Shown here: positions 1-58,012 of the stretch, one piece after another
Numbering within the stretch: position 1 is the stretch's first letter
Layout: every line of letters begins with the position of its first letter
Source: a virus
Taxonomy: Duplodnaviria > Caudoviricetes
Reading direction: 5' to 3' (one strand)
IMG/VR virus record: IMGVR_UViG_3300031658_000009
Coordinates: 1 to 58,012 of that record
DNA: 58,012 nt
The notes under the pieces: model-generated
Seen by the model: the letters and a program-made list of their open reading frames with translations, nothing else
Databases searched by the model: none
What the model was told of the DNA's origin: nothing
Translations under genes and position numbers: made by a program

Positions 1-3000
1 CCGTACCAGCGGGACTACCACTACCGTTAGTTCCGGTTGTACCGTTTACAATGTTTACAGTATCAAATACCAAAAGCCTGTTCGTGTTACAATTTGAAAC
101 ATCGTTTACCTGCCAAATATCTGGAGTATAAATTGTTCCGTTAGACCCAGTTGCTCCTTTGGCTCCAGCGGCTCCAGCAGTACCTGTTGCTCCTTTAGCA
201 CCATTGGTACCATTAGCCCCTGTTGCTCCTTTGGCTCCAGCGGCTCCATTGGCACCGGTAGCACCCTTAGCACCCTTAGTACCTGCTCCTGTTGCTCCTT
301 TAGCACCAGAAGATCCGTTGATGTTTCCTGTTTGATTCCATTGACTTCCATCCCATTCGTATACGTCACCGTTATCAGTGTCAAGATATTGATCTCTTAG
401 GTTTACACCAGCCGCTGTTGGGGCTCCACTGTCAGAAGTCCATTGTGAACCCTGAACCCCTTTAGCGCCAGTTGCTCCTTTGGCTCCAGCAGTTCCTTTA
501 GTCGCTGTTCCGGTTGCTCCTTTGGCTCCAGCGGCTCCAGCGGCTCCTTTAACTGAAGCGCCGGTTGCTCCTTTGGCTCCAGCGGCTCCAGCGGCTCCTT
601 TCGTTGCGGTACCTGTTGCTCCCTTGTCTCCGGTTGCGCCCTTGGTTGCAGCACCAGTGGCGCCTTTTTGACCTTTAGTCGCTGTTCCGGTTGCTCCTTT
701 GGCTCCAGCGGCTCCAGCGGCTCCTTTAACTGAAGCGCCAGTTGCCCCCTTGTCTCCAGTTGCTCCTTTAGTAGCGGCACCTGTCGCTCCTTTTTGACCT
801 TTAGTTGCTGTTCCAGTCGCTCCCTTGTCTCCGGTTGCTCCTTTTGTAGCAGTACCGGTTGCTCCCTTGGCTCCCGCTGCTCCTTTAGTAGCGGCACCTG
901 TCGCTCCTTTAGCACCATCGTTACCAGCAGTACCTGTTGCTCCTTTTGTAGCAGCGCCGGTTGCTCCCTTGTCTCCAGTTGCCCCCTTAGTAGCGGCACC
1001 AGTTGCTCCCTTGGTTCCCGCTGTTCCTTTAGTTGCGGCACCAGTCGCTCCCTTATCTCCAGTCGCTCCTTTCGTTGCTGCTCCTGTTGCTCCTTTATTA
1101 CCCGTAGGGCCTTCTATACTACCTGTTGAGTTCCATTGACTTCCATCCCATTGGTACACCTCGCCATCATCTGTATCTAAGTATAGATCATCAGTGTTTG
1201 AGGGTGCAGTCGTTGGGGCACCAGCGGCTGATTGCCATTGTGATCCCTCAACACCCTTGGATCCTGTGGCTCCTTTAGTACCTGCTTCACCTTTCTGGCC
1301 TTTGGTTGCTGTTCCAGTTGCTCCTTTGGCTCCAGCAGTTCCTTTAGTAGCAGCACCTGTTGCTCCTTTATCACCAGTCGCTCCTTTAGTCGCTGTTCCA
1401 GTCGCACCCTTATCACCAGTCGCTCCTTTAGTCGCTGCGCCAGTTGCCCCCTTGTCTCCGGTTGCTCCTTTCGTCGCTGTTCCAGTTGCTCCCTTATCAC
1501 CAGTTGCCCCTTTAGTAGCAGCACCAGTTGCTCCCTTCGCACCCGTAGGGCCTTCTATACTACCTGTTGAGTTCCATTGACTTCCATCCCACTGATAGAC
1601 CTCACCGTCGTCAGTGTCAAGATATTGATCATCAGTATTTGACGGTGCAGTCGTTGGGGCACCAGCGGCTGATTGCCATTGTGATCCCTCTACTCCTTTA
1701 GATCCGGTTGCTCCCTTGGCTCCCGCTGTTCCTTTAGTTGCAGTACCAGTTGCGCCTTTATCTCCAGTCGCTCCTTTCGTTGCAGCGCCTGTGGCACCTT
1801 TAGTACCATCAACACCTTTTAGTCCCTTATCACCCTTAACAGCGGTTCCTGTAGCACCTTTGGCTCCGTCTATACCTTTATCTCCAGTAGCACCCTTAAC
1901 AGATGCTCCTGTAGCGCCTTTATCTCCAGTTGCCCCTTTGGTTGCAGCACCAGTAGCGCCTTTATCGCCAGTTGCTCCTTTAGTAGCGGTACCAGTTGCG
2001 CCTTTAGTTCCGTCTATACCTTTATCTCCGGTAGCGCCTTTGGTTCCATCTATTCCTTTTTGACCGGTCTGTCCTTTGCTACCACCTGGTCCTTGAGGTC
2101 CCTGTATACTACCTTGTGCATTCCATTGACTTCCGTCCCATTGGTATACCTCACCGTCATCGGTGTCTAAATACTGATCATCTACGTTAGAAGGAGCAGT
2201 CGTTGGGGCACCAGCGGCTGATTGCCATTGTGATCCCTCAACCCCTTTCTGGCCCTTGTCGCCTGTCGCGCCCTTAGTACCGTCTACACCCTTCTGACCC
2301 TTATCTCCAGCAGTACCTTTATCTCCCGCTGTTCCTTTTGTGCCATCAATACCCTTCTGTCCGGTTTGTCCTTTATCTCCCGCTGTTCCTTTAGTTGCGG
2401 TACCGGTCGCTCCCTTGGCACCAGCAGTTCCCTTAGATCCCTCTATACTTCCTTGAGCAGCCCATGCACTGCCATTCCAAGAATATACTTCACCGTCGTC
2501 GGTGTCTAGGTACTGATCATTTGTGTTCGATGGAGCAGTAGTCGGAACACCAGCGGCTGATTGCCATTGTGAGCCTTCGACGCCTTTTTGGCCCTTGTCT
2601 CCTGTGGCACCTTTAGTACCATCAACACCTTTTAGTCCCTTTTCTCCTGTTGCTCCTTTTGTGCCATCTATTCCTTTCTGGCCTTTATCACCAGCAGTAC
2701 CTTTATCTCCAGCCGTTCCTTTTGTGCCATCAACACCTTTTAGTCCTTTATCACCTGTTGCTCCTTTTGTGCCATCAAGACCTTTCTGGCCTTTATCACC
2801 AGTCTGTCCTTTGTCTCCAGCCGTTCCTTTTGTAGCAGTACCTGTGGCGCCCTTGTCTCCGGTCTGACCCTTTGAACCTCCTGGTCCCTCTATACTTCCT
2901 TGAGCGTTCCATGTTGTTCCATTCCATGAGTAAACCTCTCCATCATCCGTATTTAAATACTGATCGCGTATGTTTACACCATTGGTTGTTGGTACTCCAC

Positions 3001-6000
3001 TAGAAGAAGTCCATTGTGAGCCTTGAACACCCTTAGCGCCAGTTGCTCCCTTAGTACCGTCAAGACCTTTCTGGCCTTTATCACCAGTTGCACCTTTTGT
3101 TCCGTCAAGACCTTTTTGGCCCTTGTCTCCCGCTGTTCCTTTTGTTCCGTCAAGACCTTTTTGGCCCTTGTCCCCGGCGGCACCCTTAGTAGCAGTACCC
3201 GTCGCTCCTTTAGGTCCTTGAATACTACCTGTGGAAGCCCACGCTGTTCCGTTCCATTGATAGACCTCACCGTCGTCGGTATCAAGATATTGGTCATCCA
3301 CGTTAGATGGGGCAGCAGTCGGAACACCAGCAGCAGAGGTCCATTGTGATCCCTCAACTCCTTTAGCACCTGTGGCACCTTTGGTTCCATCTATACCTTT
3401 TTGTCCCTTATCTCCAGTTGTTCCCTTAGTTCCGTCAAGACCTTTCTGTCCCTTATCACCAGCCGTTCCTTTGTCTCCAGTAGCACCTTTGGTTCCATCT
3501 ATACCTTTATCTCCGGTTGCGCCTTTTCCACCTCCTGGTCCTTGAGGTCCTTCAATGCTTCCCTGAGCAGTCCACGCAGTCCCATTCCAAGAATAGACTT
3601 CTCCATCATCAGTATCAAGATATTGATCTCCAGAATTCACCCCATTAGTTGTAGGTGCTCCATTGGAAGAGGTCCATTGCGAACCTTGCACTCCTTTAGC
3701 GCCTGTTTGACCCTTATCGCCAGTAGCACCCTTAGTACCGTCTATTCCTTTTTGACCTTTGTCTCCGTCTATACCCTTATCTCCGGTTTGACCCTTGGTG
3801 CCATCTATTCCTTTCTGACCAGTCTCTCCTTTCTGTCCTTTAACAGCGGCTCCAGTTGCTCCCTTCGCACCCGTAGGGCCTTCTATACTTCCTTGAGCAG
3901 CCCATGCACTGCCGTTCCATTGATAAACTTCTCCGTCGTCAGTATCCAGGTACTGATCGCCTATGTTTACGCCATTAGTTGTTGGTACTCCATTGGAAGA
4001 GGTCCACTGAGAACCTTGAACACCCTTAGCACCTGTGGCGCCCTTGTCTCCATCGACTCCTTTTTGACCCTTGTCACCATCTATTCCTTTTTGACCTTTG
4101 TCACCGGTGGTGCCTTTATCCCCTGTTGCTCCTTTTGTGCCATCTATTCCTTTCTGACCAGTCTCTCCTTTCTGACCAGTTGCACCTTTGTTACCAGTCG
4201 GCCCTTCGATACTACCTTTGGATACCCACGCTGTTCCGTTCCACTGATAAACTTCTCCATCGTCGGTGTCTAAATATTGATCATCAACATTAGATGGGGC
4301 ACCAGTAGGGGTGCCGGGAGCAGACTGCCATTGTGAGCCTTCGACTCCTTTAGTACCAGTAGCACCTTTGTCTCCGGTTTGTCCCTTGACTCCATCAATA
4401 CCTTTTTCGCCCTTATCACCGGTGGCACCTTTATCACCAGCAGTACCCTTAGTACCATCTATTCCTTTTTGACCGGTCTGTCCTTTATCACCAGTTGCAC
4501 CTTTTCCACCTCCTGGTCCTTGAGGTCCTTCTATACTACCTGTTGAGTTCCACGCTGTTCCGTTCCACTGATAGACCTCACCGTCGTCAGTATCAAGATA
4601 TTGATCGTCTGTATTAGAGGGCGCAGTAGTCGGGACACCAGCGGCTGATTGCCATTGCGATCCCTCGACCCCTTTAGCACCCGCTTCGCCTTTCTGGCCC
4701 TTATCTCCAGCCGTACCCTTGGTACCATCAACGCCTTTTTGGCCTTTGTCTCCAGCAGTACCTTTCCCTCCAGTAGGTCCTTCTATACTTCCCTGGGCAA
4801 CCCAAGCGTTTGATTTGAATTCATAAACCTCTCCATCATCTGTATCAAGATATTGGTCTCCTTCATTATTACCAGTAGATGTTGGTGCTCCAGGAGCAGA
4901 AGTCCATTCAGATCCTCTGACACCATTTATTCCTTTGTCACCGGTAGCGCCCTTAAGACCATCTATTCCTTTCTGACCCTTGTCTCCAGTCTGACCCTTG
5001 TCTCCAGTCTGTCCTTTATCTCCAGCGGTACCTTTTGTACCGTCTATACCCTTCTCTCCAGTAGCACCTTTTACAGAAGCACCAGCAGGTCCTTCTATAT
5101 TACCTGTAGATACCCACGCTGTTCCGTTCCATTGGTACACCTCGCCGTCATCGGTGTCTAAGTATTGGTCATCTGTATTAGAAGGAGCAGTCGTTGGGAC
5201 ACCAGCAGCAGACTGCCACTGCGATCCCTCCACTCCTTTAGCGCCAGTAGCACCTTTAGTACCATCAACGCCTTTATCACCAGTAGCACCTTTAGTACCA
5301 TCTATCCCTTTTTGACCTTTAGTACCGTCTATCCCTTTTTGACCTTTGTCACCAGTCTGCCCTTTGTCACCTGAGGCTCCTTTGTCTCCAGCGGTACCTT
5401 TTACAGAAGCGCCAGCAGGTCCCTCTATACTGCCTTGTGCATTCCACGCTGTTCCATCCCAAGAGTATATTTCACCGTCATCGGTATCCAGGTACTGATC
5501 GTCTATGTTTACGCCATTAGTTGTTGGTGCTCCATTGGAAGAGGTCCACTGAGAACCCTCAACTCCTTTCGCTCCAGTAGCACCTTTCTCTCCTTTAGCA
5601 CCTTCATTTCCAGTAGCACCTTTTGTACCATCTATTCCCTTATCACCAGCAGTACCTTTTCCTCCTGTAGGGCCTTCTATACTACCTTGTGCATTCCATT
5701 GACTTCCATCCCACTGGTAAACTTCACCATCATCAGTGTCTAGATATTGATCATGTTCATTGACCCCATTAGTTGTTGGAGAGCCTGGGGCTGAGGTCCA
5801 TTGAGAACCCTCTACTCCCTTGTCTCCAGTGGCTCCCTTAGTGCCATCTATTCCTTTATCTCCAGTAGCACCTTTAGTACCGTCGACTCCCTTGTCTCCA
5901 GTAGCACCTTTAGTACCGTCAGTCCCCTTATCTCCAGTGGTACCTTTAATACCAGTATCACCCTTGGATCCGGTTGCACCCTTAGTACCATCTATTCCTT

Positions 6001-7117
6001 TTTCGCCGGTCTGTCCTTTTTCTCCGGTAGTCCCCTTATCTCCAGTGGTACCTTTAATACCAGTATCACCCTTATCTCCGGTTGCACCCTTAGTGCCATC
6101 AATCCCTTTTTGACCAGTCTCTCCTTTTTCTCCGGCAGTTCCTTTAGTACCTTCAGTACCCTTGTCTCCTGTACTTCCTTTATCTCCTCTGTCACCTGTA
6201 GTTACAAATGACACTATTACATCATCGCTGTTTGCAAATGGATCAGCACTTGAAAAGCCCTGCTCACCTATGTCTATTGACCACCAACCTGTTTGATCAG
6301 TTAGATCACTAATACTAAACAACAGAAAGATTGAAGCATCGAGTCTCTTAGAAACCCTTACATGACCTTTAACAGCGGATGTTACAGATGATATAGTTGA
6401 TAAAAAAGAATCAATGCTATTACCGTCATCATCGGTTGAGTCAATAGCCATTATAGTTGAAGTTGATTGATCTCCTCCACCCTGATTAACAACGACTATA
6501 CCTGTTCCGGGATCAGCACTTACGTCTGTTGATGTACTAAATGTATAATCAAAAGTAGCACCACCAAAGTTACCTTCAGTACCCTTGGATCCTGTGTCCC
6601 CCTTAGTGCCATCAATACCTTTTTGACCGTCTACCCCTTTTTGTCCGGTTTGACCTTTATCTCCTGTTGCTCCTTTTACTCCAATCTCACCTTTCTCTCC
6701 AGTAGCGCCCTTATCACCAGAAGTGCCCTTGGTTCCATCTATCCCTTTATCACCGGTTGTTCCTTTATCTCCCGCTGTTCCTTTGTCACCGGTTGATCCT
6801 TTTACTCCGATATCACCCTTAACTCCGATTTCACCTTTATCTCCGGTAACTCCCTTATCTCCAGTAGTTCCCTTAACTCCGATTTCTCCTTTATCACCGG
6901 TAGTCCCTTTCTCACCAGTGGTACCCTTAACTCCTTGATCTCCTTTAACGCCAATCTCTCCCTTTTGACCTTTAGAACCTACCTCACCCTTCTCACCTTT
7001 GGCGCCAACAAGTTGAGTAACACTTCCGGGTGTTATTACCGCTGTTGTTTGAGGTGGTAGTGTAACGTCAAAGACGAGTCCTCCTGCTTCTATTACTATG
7101 ATTTCTACTTCAGCCAT
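1..7117 (-). CDS. Giant collagen-like fibre protein, 3'-truncated by the window edge (2,372 codons visible)
   Basis: ATG at 7117 reads MAEVEIIVIEAGGLVFDVTLPPQTTAVITPGSVTQLV, then GAKGEKGEVGSKGQKGEIGVKGDQ... The same frame is open where I read it at the edge (..RLLVFDTVNIVNGTTGTNGSGSPAGT). The shadow ORFs of the track keep a constant phase along 0.1-6.9 kb, arguing against frameshifts. Not every codon was checked by hand. Confidence 0.93.
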   Translation of the reverse strand, partial: MAEVEIIVIEAGGLVFDVTLPPQTTAVITPGSVTQLVGAKGEKGEVGSKGQKGEIGVKGDQGVKGTTGEKGTTGDKGEIGVKGTTGDKGVTGDKGEIGVKGDIGVKGSTGDKGTAGDKGTTGDKGIDGTKGTSGDKGATGEKGEIGVKGATGDKGQTGQKGVDGQKGIDGTKGDTGSKGTEGNFGGATFDYTFSTSTDVSADPGTGIVVVNQGGGDQSTSTIMAIDSTDDDGNSIDSFLSTISSVTSAVKGHVRVSKRLDASIFLLFSISDLTDQTGWWSIDIGEQGFSSADPFANSDDVIVSFVTTGDRGDKGSTGDKGTEGTKGTAGEKGETGQKGIDGTKGATGDKGDTGIKGTTGDKGTTGEKGQTGEKGIDGTKGATGSKGDTGIKGTTGDKGTDGTKGATGDKGVDGTKGATGDKGIDGTKGATGDKGVEGSQWTSAPGSPTTNGVNEHDQYLDTDDGEVYQWDGSQWNAQGSIEGPTGGKGTAGDKGIDGTKGATGNEGAKGEKGATGAKGVEGSQWTSSNGAPTTNGVNIDDQYLDTDDGEIYSWDGTAWNAQGSIEGPAGASVKGTAGDKGASGDKGQTGDKGQKGIDGTKGQKGIDGTKGATGDKGVDGTKGATGAKGVEGSQWQSAAGVPTTAPSNTDDQYLDTDDGEVYQWNGTAWVSTGNIEGPAGASVKGATGEKGIDGTKGTAGDKGQTGDKGQTGDKGQKGIDGLKGATGDKGINGVRGSEWTSAPGAPTSTGNNEGDQYLDTDDGEVYEFKSNAWVAQGSIEGPTGGKGTAGDKGQKGVDGTKGTAGDKGQKGEAGAKGVEGSQWQSAAGVPTTAPSNTDDQYLDTDDGEVYQWNGTAWNSTGSIEGPQGPGGGKGATGDKGQTGQKGIDGTKGTAGDKGATGDKGEKGIDGVKGQTGDKGATGTKGVEGSQWQSAPGTPTGAPSNVDDQYLDTDDGEVYQWNGTAWVSKGSIEGPTGNKGATGQKGETGQKGIDGTKGATGDKGTTGDKGQKGIDGDKGQKGVDGDKGATGAKGVQGSQWTSSNGVPTTNGVNIGDQYLDTDDGEVYQWNGSAWAAQGSIEGPTGAKGATGAAVKGQKGETGQKGIDGTKGQTGDKGIDGDKGQKGIDGTKGATGDKGQTGAKGVQGSQWTSSNGAPTTNGVNSGDQYLDTDDGEVYSWNGTAWTAQGSIEGPQGPGGGKGATGDKGIDGTKGATGDKGTAGDKGQKGLDGTKGTTGDKGQKGIDGTKGATGAKGVEGSQWTSAAGVPTAAPSNVDDQYLDTDDGEVYQWNGTAWASTGSIQGPKGATGTATKGAAGDKGQKGLDGTKGTAGDKGQKGLDGTKGATGDKGQKGLDGTKGATGAKGVQGSQWTSSSGVPTTNGVNIRDQYLNTDDGEVYSWNGTTWNAQGSIEGPGGSKGQTGDKGATGTATKGTAGDKGQTGDKGQKGLDGTKGATGDKGLKGVDGTKGTAGDKGTAGDKGQKGIDGTKGATGEKGLKGVDGTKGATGDKGQKGVEGSQWQSAAGVPTTAPSNTNDQYLDTDDGEVYSWNGSAWAAQGSIEGSKGTAGAKGATGTATKGTAGDKGQTGQKGIDGTKGTAGDKGTAGDKGQKGVDGTKGATGDKGQKGVEGSQWQSAAGAPTTAPSNVDDQYLDTDDGEVYQWDGSQWNAQGSIQGPQGPGGSKGQTGQKGIDGTKGATGDKGIDGTKGATGTATKGATGDKGATGAATKGATGDKGATGASVKGATGDKGIDGAKGATGTAVKGDKGLKGVDGTKGATGAATKGATGDKGATGTATKGTAGAKGATGSKGVEGSQWQSAAGAPTTAPSNTDDQYLDTDDGEVYQWDGSQWNSTGSIEGPTGAKGATGAATKGATGDKGATGTATKGATGDKGATGAATKGATGDKGATGTATKGATGDKGATGAATKGTAGAKGATGTATKGQKGEAGTKGATGSKGVEGSQWQSAAGAPTTAPSNTDDLYLDTDDGEVYQWDGSQWNSTGSIEGPTGNKGATGAATKGATGDKGATGAATKGTAGTKGATGAATKGATGDKGATGAATKGATGTAGNDGAKGATGAATKGAAGAKGATGTATKGATGDKGATGTATKGQKGATGAATKGATGDKGATGASVKGAAGAAGAKGATGTATKGQKGATGAATKGATGDKGATGTATKGAAGAAGAKGATGASVKGAAGAAGAKGATGTATKGTAGAKGATGAKGVQGSQWTSDSGAPTAAGVNLRDQYLDTDNGDVYEWDGSQWNQTGNINGSSGAKGATGAGTKGAKGATGANGAAGAKGATGANGTNGAKGATGTAGAAGAKGATGSNGTIYTPDIWQVNDVSNCNTNRLLVFDTVNIVNGTTGTNGSGSPAGT
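315..5810 (-). repeat. 15 dispersed copies of a ~45-aa non-collagen module punctuating the collagen
   Basis: Consensus GSQW(Q/T)SxxGxPTxxxxNxDDQYLDTDDGEVYxWxGxxWxxxGSIEGP, counted at about 380, 1175, 1615, 2165, 2505, 2950, 3280, 3610, 3945, 4270, 4590, 4845, 5155, 5485 and 5740. Confidence 0.9.
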
Positions 7118-28310: not shown

Positions 28311-28591
28311 GTCAAGGTCAAGACATCTTCTACTATGTAGTAAATGTTATTTACCAAAGAAAGATCGGGAAAAAAATGTATCCGCTTAAAGGATACGAAC
28401 TTACATGCGTTAGTAGAGCAAAGAACATGAGGGACTTAAACAAAGATAATAATACTTTGTATTTTTTGGAGAAACAGATGTCAACCAATGCTAAGAAACT
28501 TAACTTCCGTGTCTCTAAAATTCTTTCTCAAAAGAAAATAGGGCATTCATTATTCCACAAAGAAAGTACATACACTGATGAGTTCAAATGA
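28307..28591 (+). CDS. Basic hypothetical protein
   Basis: 94 aa, coupled to neighbours. Confidence 0.65.
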   Translation: MSQGQDIFYYVVNVIYQRKIGKKMYPLKGYELTCVSRAKNMRDLNKDNNTLYFLEKQMSTNAKKLNFRVSKILSQKKIGHSLFHKESTYTDEFK

Positions 28592-30757: not shown

Positions 30758-30959
30758 AATCTACTTCCTAGCAACCAGTCGAATGCACGATGCATCTACT
30801 GAGTTGTACGAGAGTCTACATGACTCCTCAGGAAACCCACGTTCAGATGCTGAACGATTACACAATACAATTAGAAAGTATAAACGAGATATTGATTCAG
30901 AGTTTGATATGATTCGCTCTGTGTTACTAGAGTTCTATGATGACACTGATTTATCTTGA
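30735..30959 (+). CDS. Hypothetical protein
   Basis: 74 aa, overlapping both neighbours. Confidence 0.65.
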   Translation: MDTKSLSKIYFLATSRMHDASTELYESLHDSSGNPRSDAERLHNTIRKYKRDIDSEFDMIRSVLLEFYDDTDLS

Positions 30960-47400: not shown

Positions 47401-49509
47401 GTTTCCGTCCATGTCATCATTAGCAATAGCAAAACTACCACCCTGAGTTATATATCCTCCGTTTCTTTCAATAGAAGCATTTCTGCCTGAAATGTTTGCA
47501 CCAGTGTTTGTTAAGTAAAAACCATTTGCAGTTGGAACTAGTCTGAATGCTGATCCGCTGTTAATAAGCGCCTGTTCCCCGTTGATGTTGCTTTCTATAA
47601 GGTCAAAAGTGGACTGCACTCCAAAGGGTTGAATAACTTCAGCCTCTCTTGTACCAAACACTAGTTTATCAACCTTCATAGTCACAAGACTTAAGGATAA
47701 CTTATAGGTATCTATGCCTGTGGTTGGGTTAGGGTTTGTTCTTCTAAACCAAACTTCTCCTGACCCAGAAAATGCAGCAGACTCAACTGTTGCTCTGGTA
47801 CCAAAGCCTGTAGTAAACGTGCTAAACCCAGCCTCACCTTGTTGTGGCATTAACTGAGTTGGATACAATCCTTCTATAGCGGTATTTACCAGTGTTTGAA
47901 TTTGAGAACGGGTACTATTAGCCGGAATATCAATTATCTCTCTTACCTGAAAGCCACTGCTAATTACTTTAATTCCTTTTTTAATCTTTTTTATTCCTAC
48001 ACTTTCTTCTGTTGTATCAGAGGTACCCTTCTGAGCAATGAATCTTATTTGAGGAGGTAAGTTTAATACCCCTGAATCAAGGTTTAACCCAGTCTGATTA
48101 CCGGCACCTCCTCCAGTTGCAATAGTCCTGAGCCCAGCCATAGCCGCCATCTTTTCAGCCTGTGTTGAACTTACTTTATTACTACCAGCAGCGTCACTAA
48201 ATACCTCAAATTTACCAAGGTCTTCTATAAAATTAAAATCATTAGTATTATTGAGAACATTTCGAATAACCATTGCTCCATCATTCCAATTAAAGGACAA
48301 TAAAACTTTAGAGTCTTCCGTAACTCCACCAAAAGGTATGTTACTAAAGTCTATATCTATAAAAGAACCCAGATTAGGCTGTAGGGTTGTGTTCTCAGAT
48401 ACAGTAATCTCAAATGTGTTTGGCTTTGCATTGTAGTTGGGTAATGAATCAACATCCATAAATGGTAAGTTGTCATAATTCTCTGTATACCCTCCGTAGA
48501 ACAGCCTACCCTGTGACAGCGCTTGACTATCCGCCTTTTGAGGGAGGTTGTCATATCTCTTGTCTTGAGTCTGAGAAGATAACCCAACATAATTAGAATC
48601 ATTTCTAAAGAATATATTTTGAGTACCTCCTGAATTAACGTTAGGTATTGTTTCAATCAAAAAGAACGGAGCATCCTTGTCTCCAATCCTTGCGTATATA
48701 TTAATTTCACTTACATCTGCGGCGCTGTAGGTTACCTGTATCTTTGCTTCGTTAAAAAAGTTTCTTGCTCCAGCATTAATAAACCCATCTTTCAATTGAG
48801 ATTTAGAAATAGCAAGTTCAGAATAAGGACCTAAAGCACTTTGTTCTCCATCGAAGTATTCATACTGATAAGAAAACTGAAAGTTCTTTTCAAAGATGTC
48901 GTTCTGAGGAGACGCAGAGTTGTTCTGAAAAGTGACTATAGGTGCTACAAGTGGTTGTGCTTTTGCCGCTGTTATATAAGCAAGCCTGTCAGTGTCTGAC
49001 CCTGATAAAAAGTTTGCAGGATAACCGCCTGATCCGGATATACTCTGCTCTGCAAGGTTTGTATTAATCTTCTTAGGTTGAGTCAGGCTGTCATTGAAAT
49101 ACAATAATATATTCCCGTTGGATAACCTTATGATATCTGCATCTACATGTCCCTCTTCGGTAAACTGTAATACAGAGTCTTGATAAACTATAAAAGTCTT
49201 CTTAGCGTTTTGATCGTACCTAAATATAGTATGATTCGTGCTGCTGTTCCAGACAAAGTAATATATCTGTGATGACTGCTCATCTGCAATTGATCCAATA
49301 ACGACATTGCTACCAGCCGGTATTGTGCCATTCTCTATAGTATCGGCTCTACTGATATTACCCCACGCATTCTTTAATACCTGAGCATCAATCTCAGAGT
49401 CAACAGAGACACGCACGTTTTGAGCGTCCACCATTTCGGTGCGCTTAATTAAACGCTCGTCATCATCACTGTTGAGATAGCGTGGTATGATTTTATCAAT
49501 AGAAGGCAT
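44452..49509 (-). CDS. Tail stabilisation/muzzle protein (P22 gp10/crAss-like)
   Basis: 1685 aa, beta-rich. LNSDDDERLI..DAQNVR, RLFYGGY, FKSGSNHELGLIYFDDKGR, YGSIKSM, YTGEYG..NPES, GDSIRDYY. Confidence 0.8.
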   Translation of the reverse strand: MPSIDKIIPRYLNSDDDERLIKRTEMVDAQNVRVSVDSEIDAQVLKNAWGNISRADTIENGTIPAGSNVVIGSIADEQSSQIYYFVWNSSTNHTIFRYDQNAKKTFIVYQDSVLQFTEEGHVDADIIRLSNGNILLYFNDSLTQPKKINTNLAEQSISGSGGYPANFLSGSDTDRLAYITAAKAQPLVAPIVTFQNNSASPQNDIFEKNFQFSYQYEYFDGEQSALGPYSELAISKSQLKDGFINAGARNFFNEAKIQVTYSAADVSEINIYARIGDKDAPFFLIETIPNVNSGGTQNIFFRNDSNYVGLSSQTQDKRYDNLPQKADSQALSQGRLFYGGYTENYDNLPFMDVDSLPNYNAKPNTFEITVSENTTLQPNLGSFIDIDFSNIPFGGVTEDSKVLLSFNWNDGAMVIRNVLNNTNDFNFIEDLGKFEVFSDAAGSNKVSSTQAEKMAAMAGLRTIATGGGAGNQTGLNLDSGVLNLPPQIRFIAQKGTSDTTEESVGIKKIKKGIKVISSGFQVREIIDIPANSTRSQIQTLVNTAIEGLYPTQLMPQQGEAGFSTFTTGFGTRATVESAAFSGSGEVWFRRTNPNPTTGIDTYKLSLSLVTMKVDKLVFGTREAEVIQPFGVQSTFDLIESNINGEQALINSGSAFRLVPTANGFYLTNTGANISGRNASIERNGGYITQGGSFAIANDDMDGNKCFKSGSNHELGLIYFDDKGRAGGVQPLLEETFVQHTNNRDNQNNLDGYADITMRIRHTAPTWASRFSVVYAGQGSIVNKIQYSIGGAYLALNDAAEGGFGAAQNIYLSLGTLQSRNNSYDNQLGADISYGFAEGDRVRIVRYGDNIKETKTWRVSRLTTLLASPTTNPILDRSSKASIQNTTGDFLVLEDNNTFGWNTASIMDNNSNWNNQCVIEIFRESDAFNNMFYYEIGENLSIDSAGVHQTNRISTSTTLKIISQSGNEVVALSAIRLFKGDQVQTAGGESITIGNVVDDDSESGYTVRIYGNTTDTWTPTNIYAVTVQNPDSVFNIDQGDSYFRLRTLFYASAPRKGDVWRNMSAAFSQNALVDFIEDPRVSDFFKSDYTSLGKSFAYLPDARTIKRYGSITYSDPFAFDQSQLGLSSFNISLLNFSDLSYDYGSIKSMVSHDQLMYVIHERRAGVVPVKRNILTADSGEALVNSNMVLGPANYYTGEYGVNNNPESVAQYRGQIYFMDSRAGKVLRIGKETGITVISEVLVDGFFKQQTFSTALSAKNKRYHGGIDRENTEYIISSPALFTSRIAIDDSCAGTQGVGNARTNASGAIINVTPIYDDSLTFFFNTEVRQWECDFDTWDTAGSGLLLIDQLTSNPIVGISENYSPSQSTSLTTDIPVVMTTSQYTAFYPCTFNQLTGVIEFRATEPTGSITVSDTSETLPAFTIAYNLWDKFWSTRYSYNAEGIISLTDRMYTFNAGKIFEHSPDVPKNTFYGITGDTIVEVVSNFNPSMIKVYEALSLEGNNSDWTVTLKNSDQTSAIASSIWDEKENFYYASIHQDSTNNVTYTSTADVTTVSGTSEVFSLGEVDALPSPLTDKITFKNAINNQSFPLGDSTALYLLNVAQNKLEPLNLYAVSVSGEKELTCNATISGFSAGDTLVLIANSAIEGDSIRDYYLQAKFVNSNTTPHELYAINFIYTKSNLHNQQGQ

Positions 49510-51993: not shown

Positions 51994-53379
51994 TTATGGT
52001 TTCTTGATAAGGATGTGTTGGTTCGCTGCGCGAGTAACCAATGCACACTCAGAACGGTAGTTGAACTGTAGATCATCTTTGTTGGTGTTGTTTACACCTA
52101 AGATAGAACCTGTCATCCAGTGCTCCATTTCACGAGAGTATCCGTTAGTGTCTTTGTAGTTTAATTCCAAAGCAGCGGCACGAGTACCAGTCTTAGGATC
52201 TACTACAGTAGTTAACGGAATCATTGCTCCCACATAGTCAGAACCAGCCAATAATGTTGGGTCGTTCAATAACTTCCATGAGTGCTTGTGGAATGTATAT
52301 CCACCACGCTTGAATGAATCGAAGCCTAGTTCTGAACCACGTCCACCGAATGCACCGATACCACTAGTTGTGTTAGTGAAACCAGCAGCGCCGTTCAATG
52401 AAGCAACCATGTCATCAATTGCCAAAGCCTGAGCAGTGTTCACGTACATAGCGTACTCTGGTGCTGCACCTTGCTTATCAAGTTCAGCGATCAATACATC
52501 CATTTCTGTGAAGTCATCGATCTGACCACTCTGTACAATACCACGATTCTCAATAGCAGCGAAGTAACCTTCTCCCGCTGTTGGGGTACCACCGATGTTT
52601 GTAGTTGTCAATGTATTGGTGATGTTCTCACCTAACAATAACATCATTTCACGCTTATCTAGGAAACGAGCACGAGTGTCCATTTCTCCTTTTACGTACC
52701 AGCGGTAATCACCGTTACCTACATTAACCCAACCAATGTTAGTTGCTTGAGAACCTGTAACCTTAAACACCTCTTTGATGATGTTGTAAGCGTTTGTACG
52801 CTCGATTACATTCGACTCTAAGTAACCAGCATTTTGATCAGAACCCTGAGCAAACAAGTTACCTACAACCGGAAGGTTTATAGCAGCAGTAGAAGTAGTA
52901 GCACCAATGTTACCACTTAGAGACTGAAGTACGTAGTCAGCCGTTGCAGTTTGTGCAACCTCACCTGTTGGAGTAATTGCAGTAACAATCATACGGTGCT
53001 CGCCACCAAATAGAACTACGTCATTCAAACGTAATACAGAAGCATCACCTGTTGCTTTCTTAACCGTAACTGTAGTAGCCGTTGAAGCCGCTGTTGCAGT
53101 TGGGTTAGCAGTTGCATAAGAGTGAAGACGAGTTTCTTCCCAGTACTGAACCTTGTCAGCAGTTCCGCTTGCACGTATTGCACCTGTAAGGCTTAAGAAC
53201 CCTGTTAAACCACCAGAGATTTGCTGGTAACCATAGGTCTTAACCAATTGGTCACGGTTATCTGGGGCATTGATTTTGTCAATAAAATCTCCTAACGAAC
53301 TGTATTTCGTTGGATCTAATCTGCGGAATACCGCGTCTTTGTTGTCATTAAACACCGGAGGTGCTGAAGATGTAGCCAT
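51994..53379 (-). CDS. Major capsid protein
   Basis: 461 aa between an acidic scaffold-like gene and a strong terminator; WEETRLH, GEGYFAAIENRG, LGFDSFKRGGYTFHK, YRSECAL. Confidence 0.82.
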   Translation of the reverse strand: MATSSAPPVFNDNKDAVFRRLDPTKYSSLGDFIDKINAPDNRDQLVKTYGYQQISGGLTGFLSLTGAIRASGTADKVQYWEETRLHSYATANPTATAASTATTVTVKKATGDASVLRLNDVVLFGGEHRMIVTAITPTGEVAQTATADYVLQSLSGNIGATTSTAAINLPVVGNLFAQGSDQNAGYLESNVIERTNAYNIIKEVFKVTGSQATNIGWVNVGNGDYRWYVKGEMDTRARFLDKREMMLLLGENITNTLTTTNIGGTPTAGEGYFAAIENRGIVQSGQIDDFTEMDVLIAELDKQGAAPEYAMYVNTAQALAIDDMVASLNGAAGFTNTTSGIGAFGGRGSELGFDSFKRGGYTFHKHSWKLLNDPTLLAGSDYVGAMIPLTTVVDPKTGTRAAALELNYKDTNGYSREMEHWMTGSILGVNNTNKDDLQFNYRSECALVTRAANQHILIKKP

Positions 53380-53402
53380 GCTAAATAATTTTTAGTTTCT
53401 TA

Positions 53403-54566
53403 TTATAAAAATGTTTGATGCCTCCCAAGTGCATCGAGCACCTGTTCGGTAATGAAATCGTTTTGACTTTGGTCTGGATTTGCTTGTGGGCCAGAGGCGT
53501 CTATGTTAGCAGCCTTCTCAACGATGTTGCGTTGGCCGTCACTTAAACCTTGAGAGTAAATGCTCTGTATAATATTTGGCAAGTTATCTGTAACTGTCCG
53601 ATGCATATTCCACAAATCATGATCCCACTCTCCTTTGGGGTCCACGTACTTATCAAAGAACTCAGTCATGTTGCCGTTATCTTTTGCTAGTTCATTACGG
53701 TAATCAGCCTTAACGCCATAATTGAATTCACGATCACCTGGTAGTTCAAAAGCAATTTCGCTTAGTTCTGTTAGTGACTGCGCATTCGACCTAAACCAAT
53801 CCGTATCAAACGGGCTATCGGGTTGAGCAACATTTGAAGCCTCTTGAGACGGCAGGGTATACGCTTCACGAAGCGATCCTACACTCTGTCGAGCCTTCTC
53901 TGAATCAATCTTTAATTGCAGGTTCGCAATTTTTACTTCCTCTTCAGAATAAACATTATCATCTGTACGGTACTTGGAAGAGATTAATAAATCAATCTCG
54001 TCATTACCAAGAGATGGGTATTCACTTGCCATTTGAACCCGCATAACAGTGCGATCATCCATTTCGGATGGATCTAATGCCTGGTAGCGGAACCAGTCTT
54101 CAGGTGAACGACCTGTTTTATCTACAAAGTCAGCAATAACTTGAATCCTTGGATCAAGATCTAACTCAGGTGATATAGATTGAGACGCTGTTGTTTCTCC
54201 TTGTGCTGGGGGCGTTTCACCCATAAGCGCATTGAAGAAAGTTTCAAAGCCTTCATTCTCATTATTTAAAGAACCTTGCTCTGGCTGGTTGATCGGCTCA
54301 ATAACTTCTTGAGTTACTGGTTGATCTTCCACCGGAGCGGCTTGTTGTACTGGTTGAGCCGATTCAACTACTTGTTGCGGCTCACTCTCAGTTGCAGGTG
54401 CTACTGGTGCACTTTGCTCTGGCGCCTGTGTCTGTACAGGTTCTTGTACAGGCGCTTGTTGCATCTCTTGTACAGGGGCATCTTCTGGGGATCCTGGCAT
54501 CGTATCAGTGATAGTAAAGCCGGCATCCTGAAGAGCCTGTTCCATTTGAGTTTCTAATTTATCCAT
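53403..54566 (-). CDS. Scaffold/capsid assembly protein
   Basis: Acidic, Q/P/E low-complexity N-terminus, directly upstream of MCP. Confidence 0.65.
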   Translation of the reverse strand: MDKLETQMEQALQDAGFTITDTMPGSPEDAPVQEMQQAPVQEPVQTQAPEQSAPVAPATESEPQQVVESAQPVQQAAPVEDQPVTQEVIEPINQPEQGSLNNENEGFETFFNALMGETPPAQGETTASQSISPELDLDPRIQVIADFVDKTGRSPEDWFRYQALDPSEMDDRTVMRVQMASEYPSLGNDEIDLLISSKYRTDDNVYSEEEVKIANLQLKIDSEKARQSVGSLREAYTLPSQEASNVAQPDSPFDTDWFRSNAQSLTELSEIAFELPGDREFNYGVKADYRNELAKDNGNMTEFFDKYVDPKGEWDHDLWNMHRTVTDNLPNIIQSIYSQGLSDGQRNIVEKAANIDASGPQANPDQSQNDFITEQVLDALGRHQTFL

Positions 54567-54589
54567 TTAAAGTATATTTATATATGTAA

Positions 54590-54597
54590 CAAATTTA
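54590..54597 (-). promoter_or_regulatory. -7 element TAAATTTG upstream of scaffold/MCP (second copy at 54980-54987)
   Basis: TAnnTTTG matches 20-23 nt upstream of ATGs. Confidence 0.65.
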
Positions 54598-54660
54598 AAA
54601 CATAAAGTGTATTTTAGCCATAGTGAGCGCACTGGCACTCATTGTGGTTAGGAGTAGCCA

Positions 54661-54697
54661 AAAGAAAAGGGGACCCTGTTAAGAGTCCCCTTTTTTT
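54661..54697. terminator. Bidirectional terminator
   Basis: AAAAGGGGAC-loop-GTCCCCTTTTTTT. Confidence 0.75.
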
Positions 54698-54716
54698 GAT
54701 GTAGTAAAATAAGTGT

Positions 54717-54959
54717 TTAGTATTGGTCTTTCGCTCCTGGATTAAAACCAGCCTTCGCACCAAGCATAGTCATAGTGGCCTTTTCAGTTTTACCCCCAGC
54801 CTTGTATTTTTTAGTACCACCGCGACCTGCATTGCCATCAACGACAGAGTCTGTGTTAGACGCAAGTAGATCAGCAGCCATTTTTCTTTGGGCTGGATCT
54901 TCAAGTAAAGCCTTTAATAGACCTCCGTTTTTATACATTTTCATTAATCTGTCGTCCAT
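54717..54959 (-). CDS. Small protein with two YKxGG motifs
   Basis: KMYKNGG and KKYKAGG; own -7 element upstream. Confidence 0.7.
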   Translation of the reverse strand: MDDRLMKMYKNGGLLKALLEDPAQRKMAADLLASNTDSVVDGNAGRGGTKKYKAGGKTEKATMTMLGAKAGFNPGAKDQY

Positions 54960-55060
54960 GATAAAGTATTTTGTTATTGCAAATTTAAGTAATGTTATCT
55001 AAGTTTATATAAGTGAATAAATATTTACACTCTGTACCTTAGATCTATACTTCTTTGCCA

Positions 55061-55354
55061 TTACCACTTAACTTTATTTGCCCAATACGCAGCAGAGAAT
55101 TTACCTCTAGCAATATTTTTAGCATGACGAGCCTTGAATGAAGCACGTTTCTTTTTCATCTTATCAGATTCCCCTGCTTTTGGTTTACCCGCTGTTGATG
55201 CTCCTTGCTCTCCAAATCTAATAACCTTTACCTTATCGCCTTCTTTTGCAGCAACTATGTGTGATTTCTTAGCGTGATCAGGAGTACGCTTTGGTTGGTT
55301 AAAACCTGATAACCTATATCTCTTTAATATATTCTTGTACTTGCTTTCGGACAT
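55061..55354 (-). CDS. Small basic phage protein (IRFG..FKARH..SAAYWA type)
   Basis: Likely start is ATG 55354, 4 nt after TATATTTG (55359-55366). Confidence 0.7.
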   Translation of the reverse strand: MSESKYKNILKRYRLSGFNQPKRTPDHAKKSHIVAAKEGDKVKVIRFGEQGASTAGKPKAGESDKMKKKRASFKARHAKNIARGKFSAAYWANKVKW

Positions 55355-55515
55355 AGTACAAATATAAGGATTATCGTTTTGCTCCTGGTACAGCGAGGTG
55401 TGTCTCAAGTTTATTTACAATCTCAAAAACCTTTTCATTTTCATAATGATGAGATGGGATTATAATATAAAGTAGCCTTAATTGTTCTGTGGTTAGATCT
55501 ATGTAATGCGTCATT

Positions 55516-57765
55516 TTATCTCTTGTTGCAAAAAGATACTAGCACAAATCTTTTACCTTTAGTCACAGGTCTTGCTCCATGTCTGTGCGTGATCACAGAT
55601 GGATGCACAGATATATGTCCCGCTTCTCCTTTATGTAGTTGTTGTTGACGAGAGAACCAAGTACCCCCTCCTTCGTAGTCGTCATTCAGTGCTAGTACCA
55701 TTGATATAACAGCGCCATCGTGATGAAGAGAAAGGTGACCTTGAACATCTTCTTCATACTTGATTATAAAATTCTCACTAATCATATCGCCCCACATTTT
55801 ACCTTCTAGTTTCCATTTGTGAATAGCAACAGGATAGACAAATTCCTCTAATATTTTTTGATAGTACTTCTGAAGCCCTAATACCTGGATAAGCATATCA
55901 GTGGTAGGATAGTTATCGTGTCTTTTTTTCGTCCACTTATCAGAAAACTGAGCCTCTTCAATAACTAAATTACAAAACTCCTTAGTAAACAATGGGAAGG
56001 TGAATATATCTCTTATTGGTTCATCTACAATTAAATCATACTCTTGCAGCCTGGCACTATACGTAACGAACCTGTCACAGAACTCAGGATAAGGTATATC
56101 TCTAAGGCGCTGTTTAGTTATCATCTCAGTTGTAGATGTTTCTTTGCTACTTGTTTGTCCAAACATATAAGGAACTACAGCAACAGCGCGTGTATCCTTT
56201 GTTATGAAATCTAAATCTTTTCTTGGATGAACGGAATGTGTAGTACTTAAGAACTCATCAAGAGGGAATATATATTGATTGAATTGTTGTTCCATGAAAA
56301 GTTTACACCCCTCTCTAGTCAGCATATATGCATGAGAGTTGTAAGTATAAGAAGGAACTACAAGATGTTTGTTGATTTCACTTTTTGGCGGACTCATAAA
56401 GTTATGGCCCAGATACATCAAGGTCCAGTCATGATCAGTTTTAACCTCCTCTATGTCGAACTTACGTGTAGACTTAAAATCTTCTTCAAGTATAAGTATT
56501 CTTTCATAACCATTATCATAAGCATCTTTCCATACACGCCAATGAGACAAGGAACAACCTATTTCTCCTGGCAATACATTTCTATTCCAAAACCTATTCT
56601 CTGAATCTATTTTCCACCAATCCGCTACGGTGTAATTATCAGTCATGTTCTCCCCGGTGTGGCCGTTAGATGCAGGGAATATGTATACTGGAGAATCGAT
56701 ACCGCTGTCCTTTACCCTCTTTGTTAACTCTTCTTTTTTCTCTACTGAGTCAAGAGTAATGACATAAGTCATTTCGATGTAATCTGATTTACTTTCCATT
56801 ATATTAATCCATTCTTTAGATACATTTTTCCAATCTCTTGTTGACACATATTCATCAACCTTATTCCAATCTTGCGTTTCTTTAGTGAATCCACCTAAGG
56901 TTTCCTTTAATCCTGCTAGTTCATTAACCATAGGCTTAACGTGATGAGCAAGCATTTCAAGCGCTGTTATACAGTAGGTTTCATTGTAATGAGTAGGGTA
57001 ATACCAGTACTCCATTCTTGACAGTAACTTGTATAAATCTTCTGTAGGTAAACTACCGTGATATGTCACGTTCTCAAGTTTTGATATACGATCGCTATAG
57101 TATTCAGCGAAGAAGTCTAATCCATAGGAAGGTGTACTAATATGTAAATGCCCCTTAATATATTTCTTTTCAAAGTCAGAAAGAACAGCGTCTAAACCAC
57201 GCTCTGGATGAGATGTATATACATATGAATCTTTAATCTTAACACGTACAGGCTCAACTAAAGATGTATGTATGCCATTACCTATTACCTCTACTCTGTC
57301 TCCAAGTAATTGAGCAAATGGTTCATTACTTAAAAAGTATTCTTTATGCCAATCAGTTAAACAAACAATAATATCTGTCCCTAGATAAGCCTCTTGTACT
57401 TCTATGTCAGACATCTCGTTACCTCTATACCAAATATGAGGGTGCTCATTATGAAGCCAGAATATCTTTTTAGTATTAGGGCTTAGGTTGTAATACTTCT
57501 GATAATGTAAATATGATACACCGATTAGTATATCTATATCTGGAAGTTCGCTTATCTGTTCTATTGTGAGATACCGAAGATTACCGCTGTTTGGGTATTT
57601 ATCATGCAAAGGTTTTAGGTTTCCTACAACAAAAACATCATGTCCTATCATAGCCAACTGCTGTGATAAACCCATAATGCATTGCTCTGTACCGCCTATT
57701 CCTGGTGCGTTGTGATATAAATTCCAAGGTTCGCTATAGTACCCTGCATGAAATACAATGTTCAT
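55516..57765 (-). CDS. Tri-domain enzyme: GT-B glycosyltransferase + GT25 (COLGALT-like) + PLOD-like lysyl hydroxylase
   Basis: N-terminal GIGGTEQ, YTSHPERGL, YPTHYNETYCITALE. Middle GEIGCSLSHWRVW, ILILEED, WTLMYLG, HAYML, PLDEFL..HP. C-terminal DIFTFPLFTKEFC, PTTD, NFIIKY, LSLHHD, DYEGGGT, HPSVITHRH, KRFVLVSF. Confidence 0.9.
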   Translation of the reverse strand: MNIVFHAGYYSEPWNLYHNAPGIGGTEQCIMGLSQQLAMIGHDVFVVGNLKPLHDKYPNSGNLRYLTIEQISELPDIDILIGVSYLHYQKYYNLSPNTKKIFWLHNEHPHIWYRGNEMSDIEVQEAYLGTDIIVCLTDWHKEYFLSNEPFAQLLGDRVEVIGNGIHTSLVEPVRVKIKDSYVYTSHPERGLDAVLSDFEKKYIKGHLHISTPSYGLDFFAEYYSDRISKLENVTYHGSLPTEDLYKLLSRMEYWYYPTHYNETYCITALEMLAHHVKPMVNELAGLKETLGGFTKETQDWNKVDEYVSTRDWKNVSKEWINIMESKSDYIEMTYVITLDSVEKKEELTKRVKDSGIDSPVYIFPASNGHTGENMTDNYTVADWWKIDSENRFWNRNVLPGEIGCSLSHWRVWKDAYDNGYERILILEEDFKSTRKFDIEEVKTDHDWTLMYLGHNFMSPPKSEINKHLVVPSYTYNSHAYMLTREGCKLFMEQQFNQYIFPLDEFLSTTHSVHPRKDLDFITKDTRAVAVVPYMFGQTSSKETSTTEMITKQRLRDIPYPEFCDRFVTYSARLQEYDLIVDEPIRDIFTFPLFTKEFCNLVIEEAQFSDKWTKKRHDNYPTTDMLIQVLGLQKYYQKILEEFVYPVAIHKWKLEGKMWGDMISENFIIKYEEDVQGHLSLHHDGAVISMVLALNDDYEGGGTWFSRQQQLHKGEAGHISVHPSVITHRHGARPVTKGKRFVLVSFCNKR

Positions 57766-57848
57766 TTAATAATACAATTGAATTAATAGTGCATCATTAA
57801 AGATACATTATCTAACTCATCTTTGCAATTCGAAATCCACCGCGCTTA

Positions 57849-58012
57849 TTAAACAAGCCTTTTTATTGATACAGTGTTTTGAATACCGTTAGCCTGATAA
57901 ATATCAAGACTTTTACTATTACCATCTAGCCAGAATATTCTTAAAGCAATGTCTGTGTTTGCACTTACAGTAACATAAGAAGTGTTAAACATAGCAGTAT
58001 AACCCCCTTGGT
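57849..58012 (-). CDS. 3' end of a gene entering from the right edge; probably the C1q/BclA-like C-terminus of the collagen fibre
   Basis: QGGYTAMFNTSYVTVSANTDIALRIFWLDGNSKSLDIYQANGIQNTVSIKRLV*; the other two minus frames stop within 16 codons. Confidence 0.7.
   Translation of the reverse strand, partial: QGGYTAMFNTSYVTVSANTDIALRIFWLDGNSKSLDIYQANGIQNTVSIKRLV

Follow-up and report, generated by a model that had tools for sequence, protein, structure and literature searches.

The enzymatic hydroxylation and glycosylation of collagen lysine is known from animals and from mimivirus. To our knowledge, hydroxylysine (Hyl) and its galactose (Gal) and glucosyl-galactose (Glc-Gal) glycans count as a hallmark of animal collagen, mimivirus being the sole outside case, and the collagens of bacteria and phages are described as being without such modifications. 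The sugar that the mimivirus protein L230 puts on hydroxylysine is reportedly glucose, a result attributed to Luther in 2011. Here we examine a tailed-phage genome from IMG/VR (record IMGVR_UViG_3300031658_000009), whose 58,012 bases make up the whole viral record and are called the window in what follows (classed 'linear', estimated 100% complete), and in it a gene for a 749-residue protein that joins two glycosyltransferase (GT) domains to a domain resembling collagen lysyl hydroxylase (LH). We consider it probable that with this protein the phage has a self-contained enzyme for modifying its own collagen-like fibre, whose gene precedes that of the enzyme.

In L230, H825, D827 and H877 bind Fe, and Y814 and R887 bind the C5 carboxylate of 2-oxoglutarate (2OG), as set out in Guo et al. 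(2018, PMC5802723), which also reports that L230 glycosylates hydroxylysine and describes an LH-specific tail-to-tail dimer, where Leu873 locks into an aromatic pocket of Y798, Y801 and Y831. For GLT25D1 (COLGALT1), Sun et al. (2026, PMC12987934) name D522 as the catalytic base, with E523 possibly anchoring the hydroxylysine amine and an EDD motif binding Mn; a YW motif (Y494, W495) holds hydroxylysine, W495 being essential, K470 shapes a constriction at Gly+1, and the motif recognised is Xaa-Hyl-Gly. Other dioxygenase families are predicted to modify bacterial collagen-like proteins, according to Iyer et al. (2010, PMC2938197). A full-text search of one literature collection yielded no account of either a PLOD-like hydroxylase or a COLGALT-like GT25 in a bacteriophage, which agrees with the initial annotation of this locus, made from the letters alone, that knew of no characterised phage example.

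Three predicted catalytic domains in one phage protein

The open reading frame (ORF) lies on the minus strand, with the position, length and ATG start given in the initial annotation, and divides as follows:

55516..57765, minus strand: three-domain enzyme ORF, 749 residues, ATG start; a GT4-like GT-B domain, then GT25, then a lysyl-hydroxylase-like 2OG/Fe oxygenase
56806..57765, minus strand: GT-B domain of the retaining GT4 type at the N-terminus, about residues 1-320
56131..56778, minus strand: GT25 domain, about residues 330-545, resembling the C-terminal catalytic domain of COLGALT1
55519..56100, minus strand: C-terminal lysyl-hydroxylase-like domain, residues 556-749

The motifs on which the three-domain division had first been based are all present in the translation, namely FTFPLFTKEFC, YPTTD, FIIKY, LSLHHD, DYEGGG, HPSVITHRH and RFVLVSF for the oxygenase and GEIGCSLSHWRVW, EED, WTLMYLG, HAY and PLDEFLSTTHSVHP for GT25, and the division itself is upheld by Pfam, by profile searches of the PDB, by an AlphaFold2 model and by Foldseek. 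Domain relatives were ranked by PDB E-values, bit scores and Foldseek fold matches; the profile was made from alignment A1, which holds 28 homologues 36-65% identical to the window protein, and residue conservation is counted on these 28. Pfam families above cut-off were GT25 (PF01755) at residues 333-437 (9.5e-12) and an OGFOD2-like family at 570-647, and those below cut-off were 2OG-FeII_Oxy_3 at 675-745, Glyco_transf_4 at 23-168 and Glycos_transf_1 at 230-288; NCBIfam gave only far-sub-threshold matches (21 bits, cut-off 143). The AlphaFold2 model on A1 gives all three domains with confidence, at a mean predicted local distance difference test score (pLDDT) of 88.5; its predicted template-modelling score (pTM) is 0.49, a value to be expected when three domains pack loosely against each other.

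With residues 566-747 as query, a single-sequence PDB search (phmmer) returned the L230 LH domain (6ax6, 1.6e-21) and human LH3 (1.4e-19), and among all PDB sequences up to E = 1 no oxygenase other than collagen lysyl hydroxylases. The 28-sequence profile matched LH3 at 1e-39 and L230 at 6e-37. [quoted passage not shown] In HMMER alignments, H681, D683 and H729 align with the L230 Fe ligands H825, D827 and H877; Y670 and R739 align with its 2OG binders Y814 and R887, and all five residues are invariant in the homologues (28/28).

The GT25 domain gave a comparable result. A single-sequence PDB search with residues 392-535 matched COLGALT1 at 2e-13 and bacterial GT25 enzymes at 0.28-0.34; with the profile, COLGALT1 was matched at 8.4e-30 across its entire GT25 lobe (319-542 of the profile, 302-534 of the chain), mimivirus R655 at 1.2e-7 and bacterial GT25 at 2.7e-5. 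The Foldseek match to COLGALT1 has an rmsd of 3.5 Å over 244 columns. E427-E428-D429 align with the Mn-binding EDD435-437 of COLGALT1, D429 being the counterpart of the Mn ligand D437, and D503-E504 align with D522-E523. These residues are largely conserved: E427 in 28/28, D429 in 27/28, E428 in 22/28 and D503 in 27/28, while position 504 holds E (23) or D (5), so that the DE pair is found in 23/28 and DD in 4 more. Y475, the counterpart of Y494, is also kept (Y 23, W 4, F 1). The initial annotation had raised the possibility that the domains would instead cluster with lipopolysaccharide (LPS) GT25 enzymes or generic oxygenases; they do not, the nearest solved relatives by sequence, profile and fold being LH3, L230 and COLGALT1.

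The N-terminal non-catalytic GT-A (GT2-like) lobe of COLGALT1 is absent, and the phage N-terminus is a GT-B domain. Foldseek (E 1e-10 to 1e-12) matched it to MshA (3c4q), the alpha-1,2-glucosyltransferase tll1591 (7fga, 8x3q), glycogen synthases and PimA, and also to a tetrahydrobiopterin (BH4) alpha-glucosyltransferase, all of them retaining GT-B enzymes. By sequence, the N-terminal part of the profile matched a GT4 mannosyltransferase fragment at 1.4e-5. An EX7E motif is formed by E262 and E270, which together with R189 are invariant in 28/28 homologues. The PLOD-type GT-A domain (PF25342) had no Pfam match in the window protein at E up to 1. Because catalytic residues are conserved across the 28 homologues, all three domains look active.

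The fibre gene and its linkage to the enzyme

The probable substrate is encoded by the only collagen-like ORF of the window, which runs off the window start and, if the window ends join, is completed at the other end, just before the enzyme gene:

2..7117, minus strand: giant collagen-like fibre gene, 2372 residues visible, running off the window start
57849..58012, minus strand: fibre C-terminus on the assumption that the window ends join, ..SIKRLV then TAA TAA, as an open frame across the joined ends
57766..57848, minus strand: spacer of 83 bases from the fibre stop to the enzyme ATG at 57765

Pfam Collagen matches the fibre ORF over 21 stretches (E 4.9e-148), and no other Pfam family matches it. 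The fibre is made of 45 collagen runs broken up by 14 copies of a globular insert with a DQYLDTDDGEVY-like motif, and so forms no single continuous triple helix. Its visible part holds 241 Lys, of which 237 stand directly before Gly and 205 in G-X-K-G, mostly as GDK (71), GTK (37), GQK (32) and GAK (27). In strict triplets Lys is at Y in 179/390 and at X never, which bears out the Lys-dominated Y position first described for this gene. A further 32 Lys lie in a unit that exceeds a triplet by one residue (G-x-T-G-T-A-T-K-G, A-S-V-K-G), still right before Gly; these longer units are a regular interruption of Gly-X-Y found mainly in the C-terminal half (residues ~1300-2210). Thr is the second commonest Y residue (116/479 triplets), and Pro is found at X (13) and never at Y.

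The 83-base spacing had been proposed on the assumption of a circular genome. When the fibre frame is read across the window ends, it stays open to the TAA at 57851-57849 and the spacing is reproduced, for a record itself classed 'linear'. An S-I-x-R-L motif at the right-end C-terminus is common to the fibre C-termini of related loci L005, L022, L041 and L050, and is looser in L002 and L046; the alignment of fibre C-termini is too divergent to tell if bases are missing at the join. One DNA contig from a marine run (X8) extends past base 58012, and in relatives the collagen gene and then the enzyme gene are found on uninterrupted contigs.

Linkage was assessed with a profile-guided scan of IMG/VR, which gave 277 relatives, the best 80 loci being analysed (43 enzyme clusters at 95% identity, 20 at 80%); a collagen ORF was counted if on the same strand with at least 20 Gly-X-Y triplets. 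For 75 of the 80 loci, covering 19 of the 20 clusters at 80% identity, the end of such an ORF is no more than 1.94 kb upstream of the enzyme, and the five loci without one have just 428-1745 bases of upstream DNA. Downstream of the enzyme a collagen ORF was found in 0/80 loci, 60 of which have at least 4 kb of downstream DNA. Any gap between collagen and enzyme is occupied by small genes, which in the three loci examined encode a Laminin_G_3 lectin-like protein and DUF6445 (L007, 8299-10004), DUF7936 and DUF6445 (L047, 8049-8995), or a 2OG oxygenase and a GT2 (L072, 2501-4402).

For comparison, IMG/VR was scanned without regard to the enzyme for twelve GG dinucleotides at a 9-base period; of 118 stretches found, 80 were listed and 58 had a collagen ORF of at least 20 triplets. 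In these enzyme-blind viral collagens the median fraction of Lys at Y was 0.00, with at least 0.2 in 5/58, whereas in the enzyme-linked collagens, taken as one value per cluster, the median was 0.32, with at least 0.2 in 14/19 (one-sided Mann-Whitney p = 2e-9, a value that overstates independence because the enzyme clusters are related to each other). An LH-domain search of 71 of the 80 blind-sample records, many of them fragments, gave 2 matches, both weak (31-33 bits) and covering the C-terminal core only in frames of about 200 residues.

Related genes are also present in cultured phages. The Synechococcus phages S-PRM1 (AXN58392.1) and S-CAM9 (YP_009322466.1) and the Roseobacter phage CRP-6 (gp58) encode proteins, all annotated 'hypothetical protein', with identity to the window protein of about 30% (cyanophages, over residues 394-748) and 26% (CRP-6, over 578-748). 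The 614-residue enzyme of S-PRM1 and S-CAM9 is encoded three genes after a tail-fibre gene of ~1825 residues with a 59-triplet GPK/GQK/GEK/GPT stretch; in CRP-6 the 589-residue gp58 comes two genes after a tail-fibre gene whose 97 triplets include 26 that have Lys at Y. Pfam domains were checked for S-PRM1 (L081, 8821-10665) and CRP-6 gp58 (L083, 6759-8528), and both proteins hold GT25 together with the PLOD-type GT (PF25342, 9e-46 and 4.5e-28), with the LH-like part (tblastn) C-terminal to these two, so that all three animal-type domains for collagen-lysine modification stand in one chain. Two small 2OG oxygenases are encoded between the fibre and enzyme genes of S-PRM1 and S-CAM9, whose fibre has Pro at X.

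The ESM Atlas holds many further clusters, mostly from tailed phages, with LH alone, GT1+LH, GT25+LH or GT25+GT_PLOD, and the three-domain form of the window protein with 83 members. Its automatic cluster names already label phage clusters as 'lysyl hydroxylase/...procollagen'.

Proposed pathway and competing explanations

The enzyme gene directly follows a giant Lys-rich fibre gene, and for this reason the phage probably sugar-coats that fibre. In the pathway that we favour, fibre chains would be made in the infected cell and, before triple-helix folding, the Fe(II)/2OG domain would hydroxylate the Y-position Lys of Gly-X-Lys-Gly. The GT25 domain, of the inverting GT-A kind, with EED for binding Mn and DE as its base pair, would put a first hexose on the new hydroxyl, galactose from UDP-Gal by analogy, and the GT4 domain, a retaining GT-B enzyme with EX7E, would add a second, alpha-linked sugar; the main reason for giving GT4 this step is that it fills the slot of the PLOD-type GT in the S-PRM1 and CRP-6 proteins. 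The product would be a virion fibre with up to ~200 glycosylated hydroxylysines per chain. This agrees with the initial annotation, which had read the protein as hydroxylating the fibre and then glycosylating it twice, a reading supported by what the domains are, by residue conservation, by the linkage of the two genes and by the Lys-rich fibre; the activities, the sugars and their order would follow those of LH3, COLGALT1 and L230 by likeness, with the adjacent fibre as the presumed target.

Several observations weigh against this reading. In the hydroxylase, the dimer lock is only partly kept: L873 of L230 corresponds to Ile725 (I 26, V 2) and Y831 to Ile687 (I 22, F 4), and with Y798 aligned to Trp651 (W, F or Y in 28/28) and Y801 beside the invariant Trp658, the pocket is only partly aromatic. 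A homodimer prediction for two copies of residues 556-749, made on alignment A1, was uninformative either way (score 0.18, mark 0.42). In the GT25 domain, Trp495 of COLGALT1 is not kept, its counterpart being Asn476 at a variable position (N 16, L 4, T 3, others including C), nor is Lys470, which is likewise variable (N 12, S 7, Q 4, others). The Pfam scores of the GT4 part are below cut-off, at 22.2 against 28.5 bits for Glyco_transf_4 and 13.1 against 26.4 bits for Glycos_transf_1; precomputed annotations do assign these families to several homologues.

Gene distribution also supplies counter-examples, besides the relatedness of the clusters compared above. Lys-rich collagens (0.25-0.26 Lys at Y) occur on three blind-sample records without a hydroxylase match, the records being 18-63% complete. 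For four distant enzyme clusters (36-37% identity), the collagens alongside have Lys at Y of only 0.08-0.15, with values of 0.01-0.05 in some of the adjacent genes; where the neighbour is Lys-poor, there is usually a second collagen gene at 0.13-0.15 in the same locus. In bacteria, a pattern-based scan of 185,579 species genomes gave five hits, which are no measure of real bacterial frequency; four carry the hydroxylase domain, none of them with a collagen ORF in the fetched flank, and in the fifth the match is confined to the GT-B part. One of the hydroxylase-bearing proteins, of 556 residues and from an Aliishimia metagenome-assembled genome (L085, 9992-11662), is a GT4+LH fusion with no GT25 and no adjacent collagen gene; its neighbours are ordinary chromosomal genes, including transporter and two-component genes, and the sole collagen-like ORF found in that genome (785 residues) is ~1.3 Mb away. 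The initial annotation had held that homologues independent of Lys-rich collagen genes would speak against it: the linkage in 75/80 loci and the Lys richness of the linked collagens stand on its side, and the four Lys-poor clusters and the bacterial homologue without an adjacent collagen stand on the other.

The alternative that survives best, which we nonetheless judge unlikely, is that the hydroxylase acts on fibre Lys and that one or both GT domains do something other than build a Hyl disaccharide, for example O-glycosylation of Thr at Y, or transfer of a different first sugar, such as the direct attachment of glucose as in L230. The collagen-like region of Bacillus BclA is reportedly glycosylated and offers a parallel for the Thr route, and the high frequency of Thr at Y in the fibre and the loss of the Trp that holds hydroxylysine in GLT25D1 are both consistent with it. 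Related phage proteins, moreover, combine these domains in several ways (LH alone, GT1+LH, GT25+LH, GT25+GT_PLOD), and the domains need not for that reason form one fixed pathway. However, 23/28 homologues keep the DE pair, whose Glu possibly anchors the hydroxylysine amine in GLT25D1, and 4 more have DD; COLGALT1 is by far the nearest of the solved GT25 enzymes to the GT25 domain; and in S-PRM1 and CRP-6 the GT25+LH pair is accompanied by a PLOD-type GT, the animal partner that forms the disaccharide.

That the enzyme's target is another protein, a host collagen-like surface protein or a different virion protein, and not the adjacent fibre, seems to us very improbable. The bacterial GT4+hydroxylase homologue encoded far from any collagen gene would suit this explanation, as would those collagens of distant clusters that adjoin an enzyme gene and are nearly without Lys at Y (0.01-0.05). 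The window's sole collagen-like ORF, however, offers 237 Lys-Gly sites, enzyme-linked collagens are Lys-rich relative to the enzyme-blind sample, and distant clusters with a Lys-poor neighbour usually carry a second, less Lys-poor collagen gene in the locus.

Least probable of all is that the protein alters LPS or capsule sugars of the host surface against superinfection, the role under which phage glycosyltransferases are usually annotated, with the oxygenase acting on an unrelated small-molecule or nucleic-acid substrate: homologues are annotated 'GR25 family glycosyltransferase involved in LPS biosynthesis', the PHROGs category of the parts is 'moron, auxiliary metabolic gene and host takeover', and a pelagimyophage paper (PMC7029224) proposes O-chain modification for phage glycosyltransferases generally, but bacterial GT25 enzymes match far more weakly than COLGALT1 by both sequence and profile, the oxygenase is LH-like in sequence and fold, and the gene stands in a structural module between portal and capsid genes, directly 3' of the fibre gene, an adjacency repeated in 19/20 clusters.

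If the Hyl-glycosylation pathway is taken in its full form, marine tailed phages would run complete hydroxylysine glycosylation in the bacterial cytoplasm with one three-domain enzyme, the fibre, with its more than 200 Lys-Gly sites per chain, would be a densely glycosylated glyco-collagen, and a GT-B domain would have replaced the PLOD GT; on this wider proposition we consider the balance even. If true, glycosylation through hydroxylysine would be found for the first time beyond animals and giant viruses, the toolkit for modifying collagen could plausibly have its reservoir or source in phages, and the question would arise whether the animal, giant-virus and phage enzymes have a recent common source. 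Models of phage collagen fibres would change with respect to stability, receptor binding and masking, and a compact, soluble, single-chain enzyme would be at hand for making hydroxylysine-glycosylated recombinant collagens in bacteria. Since the cultured phages S-PRM1, S-CAM9 and CRP-6 carry related genes, the claim is directly testable.

Genome setting and comparison with described systems

PHROG matches identify the window as a tailed-phage genome with a large terminase, a portal, a primase/helicase and virion structural proteins, and the nearest relatives of the terminase, at 40-47% identity, are from phages of Flavobacterium, Maribacter, Cellulophaga and Bacteroides. The features around the fibre and enzyme genes, and the primase/helicase, are as follows:

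10004-12106, minus strand: large terminase
7536-9968, minus strand: portal
28578-30368: primase/helicase
55057-55337 and 54717-54899, minus strand: two small basic ORFs 3' of the enzyme
54665-54694, minus strand: terminator-like hairpin, a 13-pair stem (6 G-C) followed by a T run (consensus scan, a pattern match only)
51994-53379, minus strand: virion structural gene (phrog_13704), 461-residue product

Over 7136-12106 and 51994-58012, the order on the minus strand is terminase, portal, a 132-residue ORF, the collagen fibre and the enzyme, followed downstream by ORFs of 115 and 80 residues, an acidic Q/E/P-rich protein of 387 residues and the 461-residue virion structural protein. This order, with portal and phrog_13704 genes on either side of the fibre-enzyme pair, places the pair inside the head-morphogenesis block, and the fibre could be a head or neck fibre and not a tail fibre. 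The hairpin stands after the 80-residue ORF, that is, after the two small ORFs 3' of the enzyme, and may mark the end of a transcription unit made of the fibre, the enzyme and these two small genes. On the coding strand of the 83-base spacer, a consensus scan gave no promoter-like and no terminator-like site. The Bacteroidota-type -7 motif TAnnTTTG has zero copies in that spacer and 59 in the window against 55 expected, a number reached by 32 of 100 shuffles; the motif is therefore not enriched overall and lends no support to a host call.

The stretch was present at 67-99% of sampled words in 18 DNA runs from marine, estuary and sediment samples of 13 studies, four of which are possibly its source. 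Contigs from two metatranscriptome libraries of one study overlie four pieces of the enzyme gene and the two small downstream ORFs, mostly at 99% identity or more; DNA carry-over is possible in such libraries, so that transcription is not proven by them. In these contigs the highest word depths of the stretch are those of the two small basic ORFs, within 54717-55337. A megablast search of window positions 28000-50000 against GenBank phages gave no match.

Elsewhere in the window, a second 2OG-Fe(II) oxygenase is encoded at 13085-13663 on the minus strand (7.3e-8), for which a sequence search of the PDB up to E = 0.1 gave nothing; a prolyl-4-hydroxylase role on the fibre is doubtful for it because the fibre has no Pro at Y. 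Other possible tailoring genes, at 17101-17706 (minus strand), 26348-27001 (plus strand) and 30937-31902 (plus strand), encode two methyltransferases, one of FkbM type, and a weak GT1-like protein. There are also two giant proteins, of 2102 residues (35090-41398, minus strand), without a PHROG match, and of 1685 residues (44452-49509, minus strand), whose N-terminal part, about residues 11-346, matches a virion structural family.

Among described systems, L230 is like the window protein in being a virus-encoded fusion of a collagen lysyl hydroxylase and a sugar transferase (LH structures 6ax6, 6ax7, 9nev). Its LH domain is the best single-sequence PDB match and the best domain-level fold match of the phage domain, with the three Fe ligands and the Tyr and Arg that bind 2OG aligned and kept. 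In contrast, the dimer-lock residues are only partly kept, L230 belongs to a giant virus of amoebae (Acanthamoeba polyphaga mimivirus), and its LH domain (residues 680-895) is accompanied by a separate glycosyltransferase domain (Guo et al., PMC5802723), whereas the phage protein has GT25 and GT4 and no PLOD-type GT in Pfam.

Human LH3 (PLOD3) and COLGALT1 (GLT25D1; structures 6fxk, 9evj, 8zgc) have LH and GT25 domains homologous to those of the phage, and share with it the Mn motif, the catalytic base pair and an X-Lys-Gly target motif. In animals, however, these are two separate proteins of the endoplasmic reticulum that form a complex, whereas the phage has one cytoplasmic polypeptide. COLGALT1 has an N-terminal non-catalytic GT-A lobe that the phage protein lacks, along with equivalents of Trp495 and Lys470, and LH3 glucosylates with a GT-A domain, in place of which the phage has a GT-B domain of GT4 type. 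Bacterial LPS GT25 enzymes (8xc8, 8xlz) have PF01755 and the GT-A fold in common with the phage GT25 domain, but their similarity to it is far weaker than that of COLGALT1, and they are neither hydroxylase-fused nor collagen-linked.

The genes of S-PRM1, S-CAM9 and CRP-6 resemble the window gene in their GT25 and LH parts and in their position, a few genes downstream of a tail-fibre gene whose collagen stretch has Lys at Y. The proteins of S-PRM1 and CRP-6 have the PLOD-type GT and lack the N-terminal GT4, the reverse of the window protein; hosts and lineages also differ from those of the window phage, S-PRM1 and S-CAM9 being Kyanoviridae myoviruses and CRP-6 a roseophage. Overall, judged by its domain content, the window protein lacks the PLOD GT domain and so falls outside the LH3/L230 architecture, and it is no COLGALT1 orthologue, because it has neither the N-lobe nor an equivalent of Trp495 or Lys470; what it carries is homologues of their catalytic domains.

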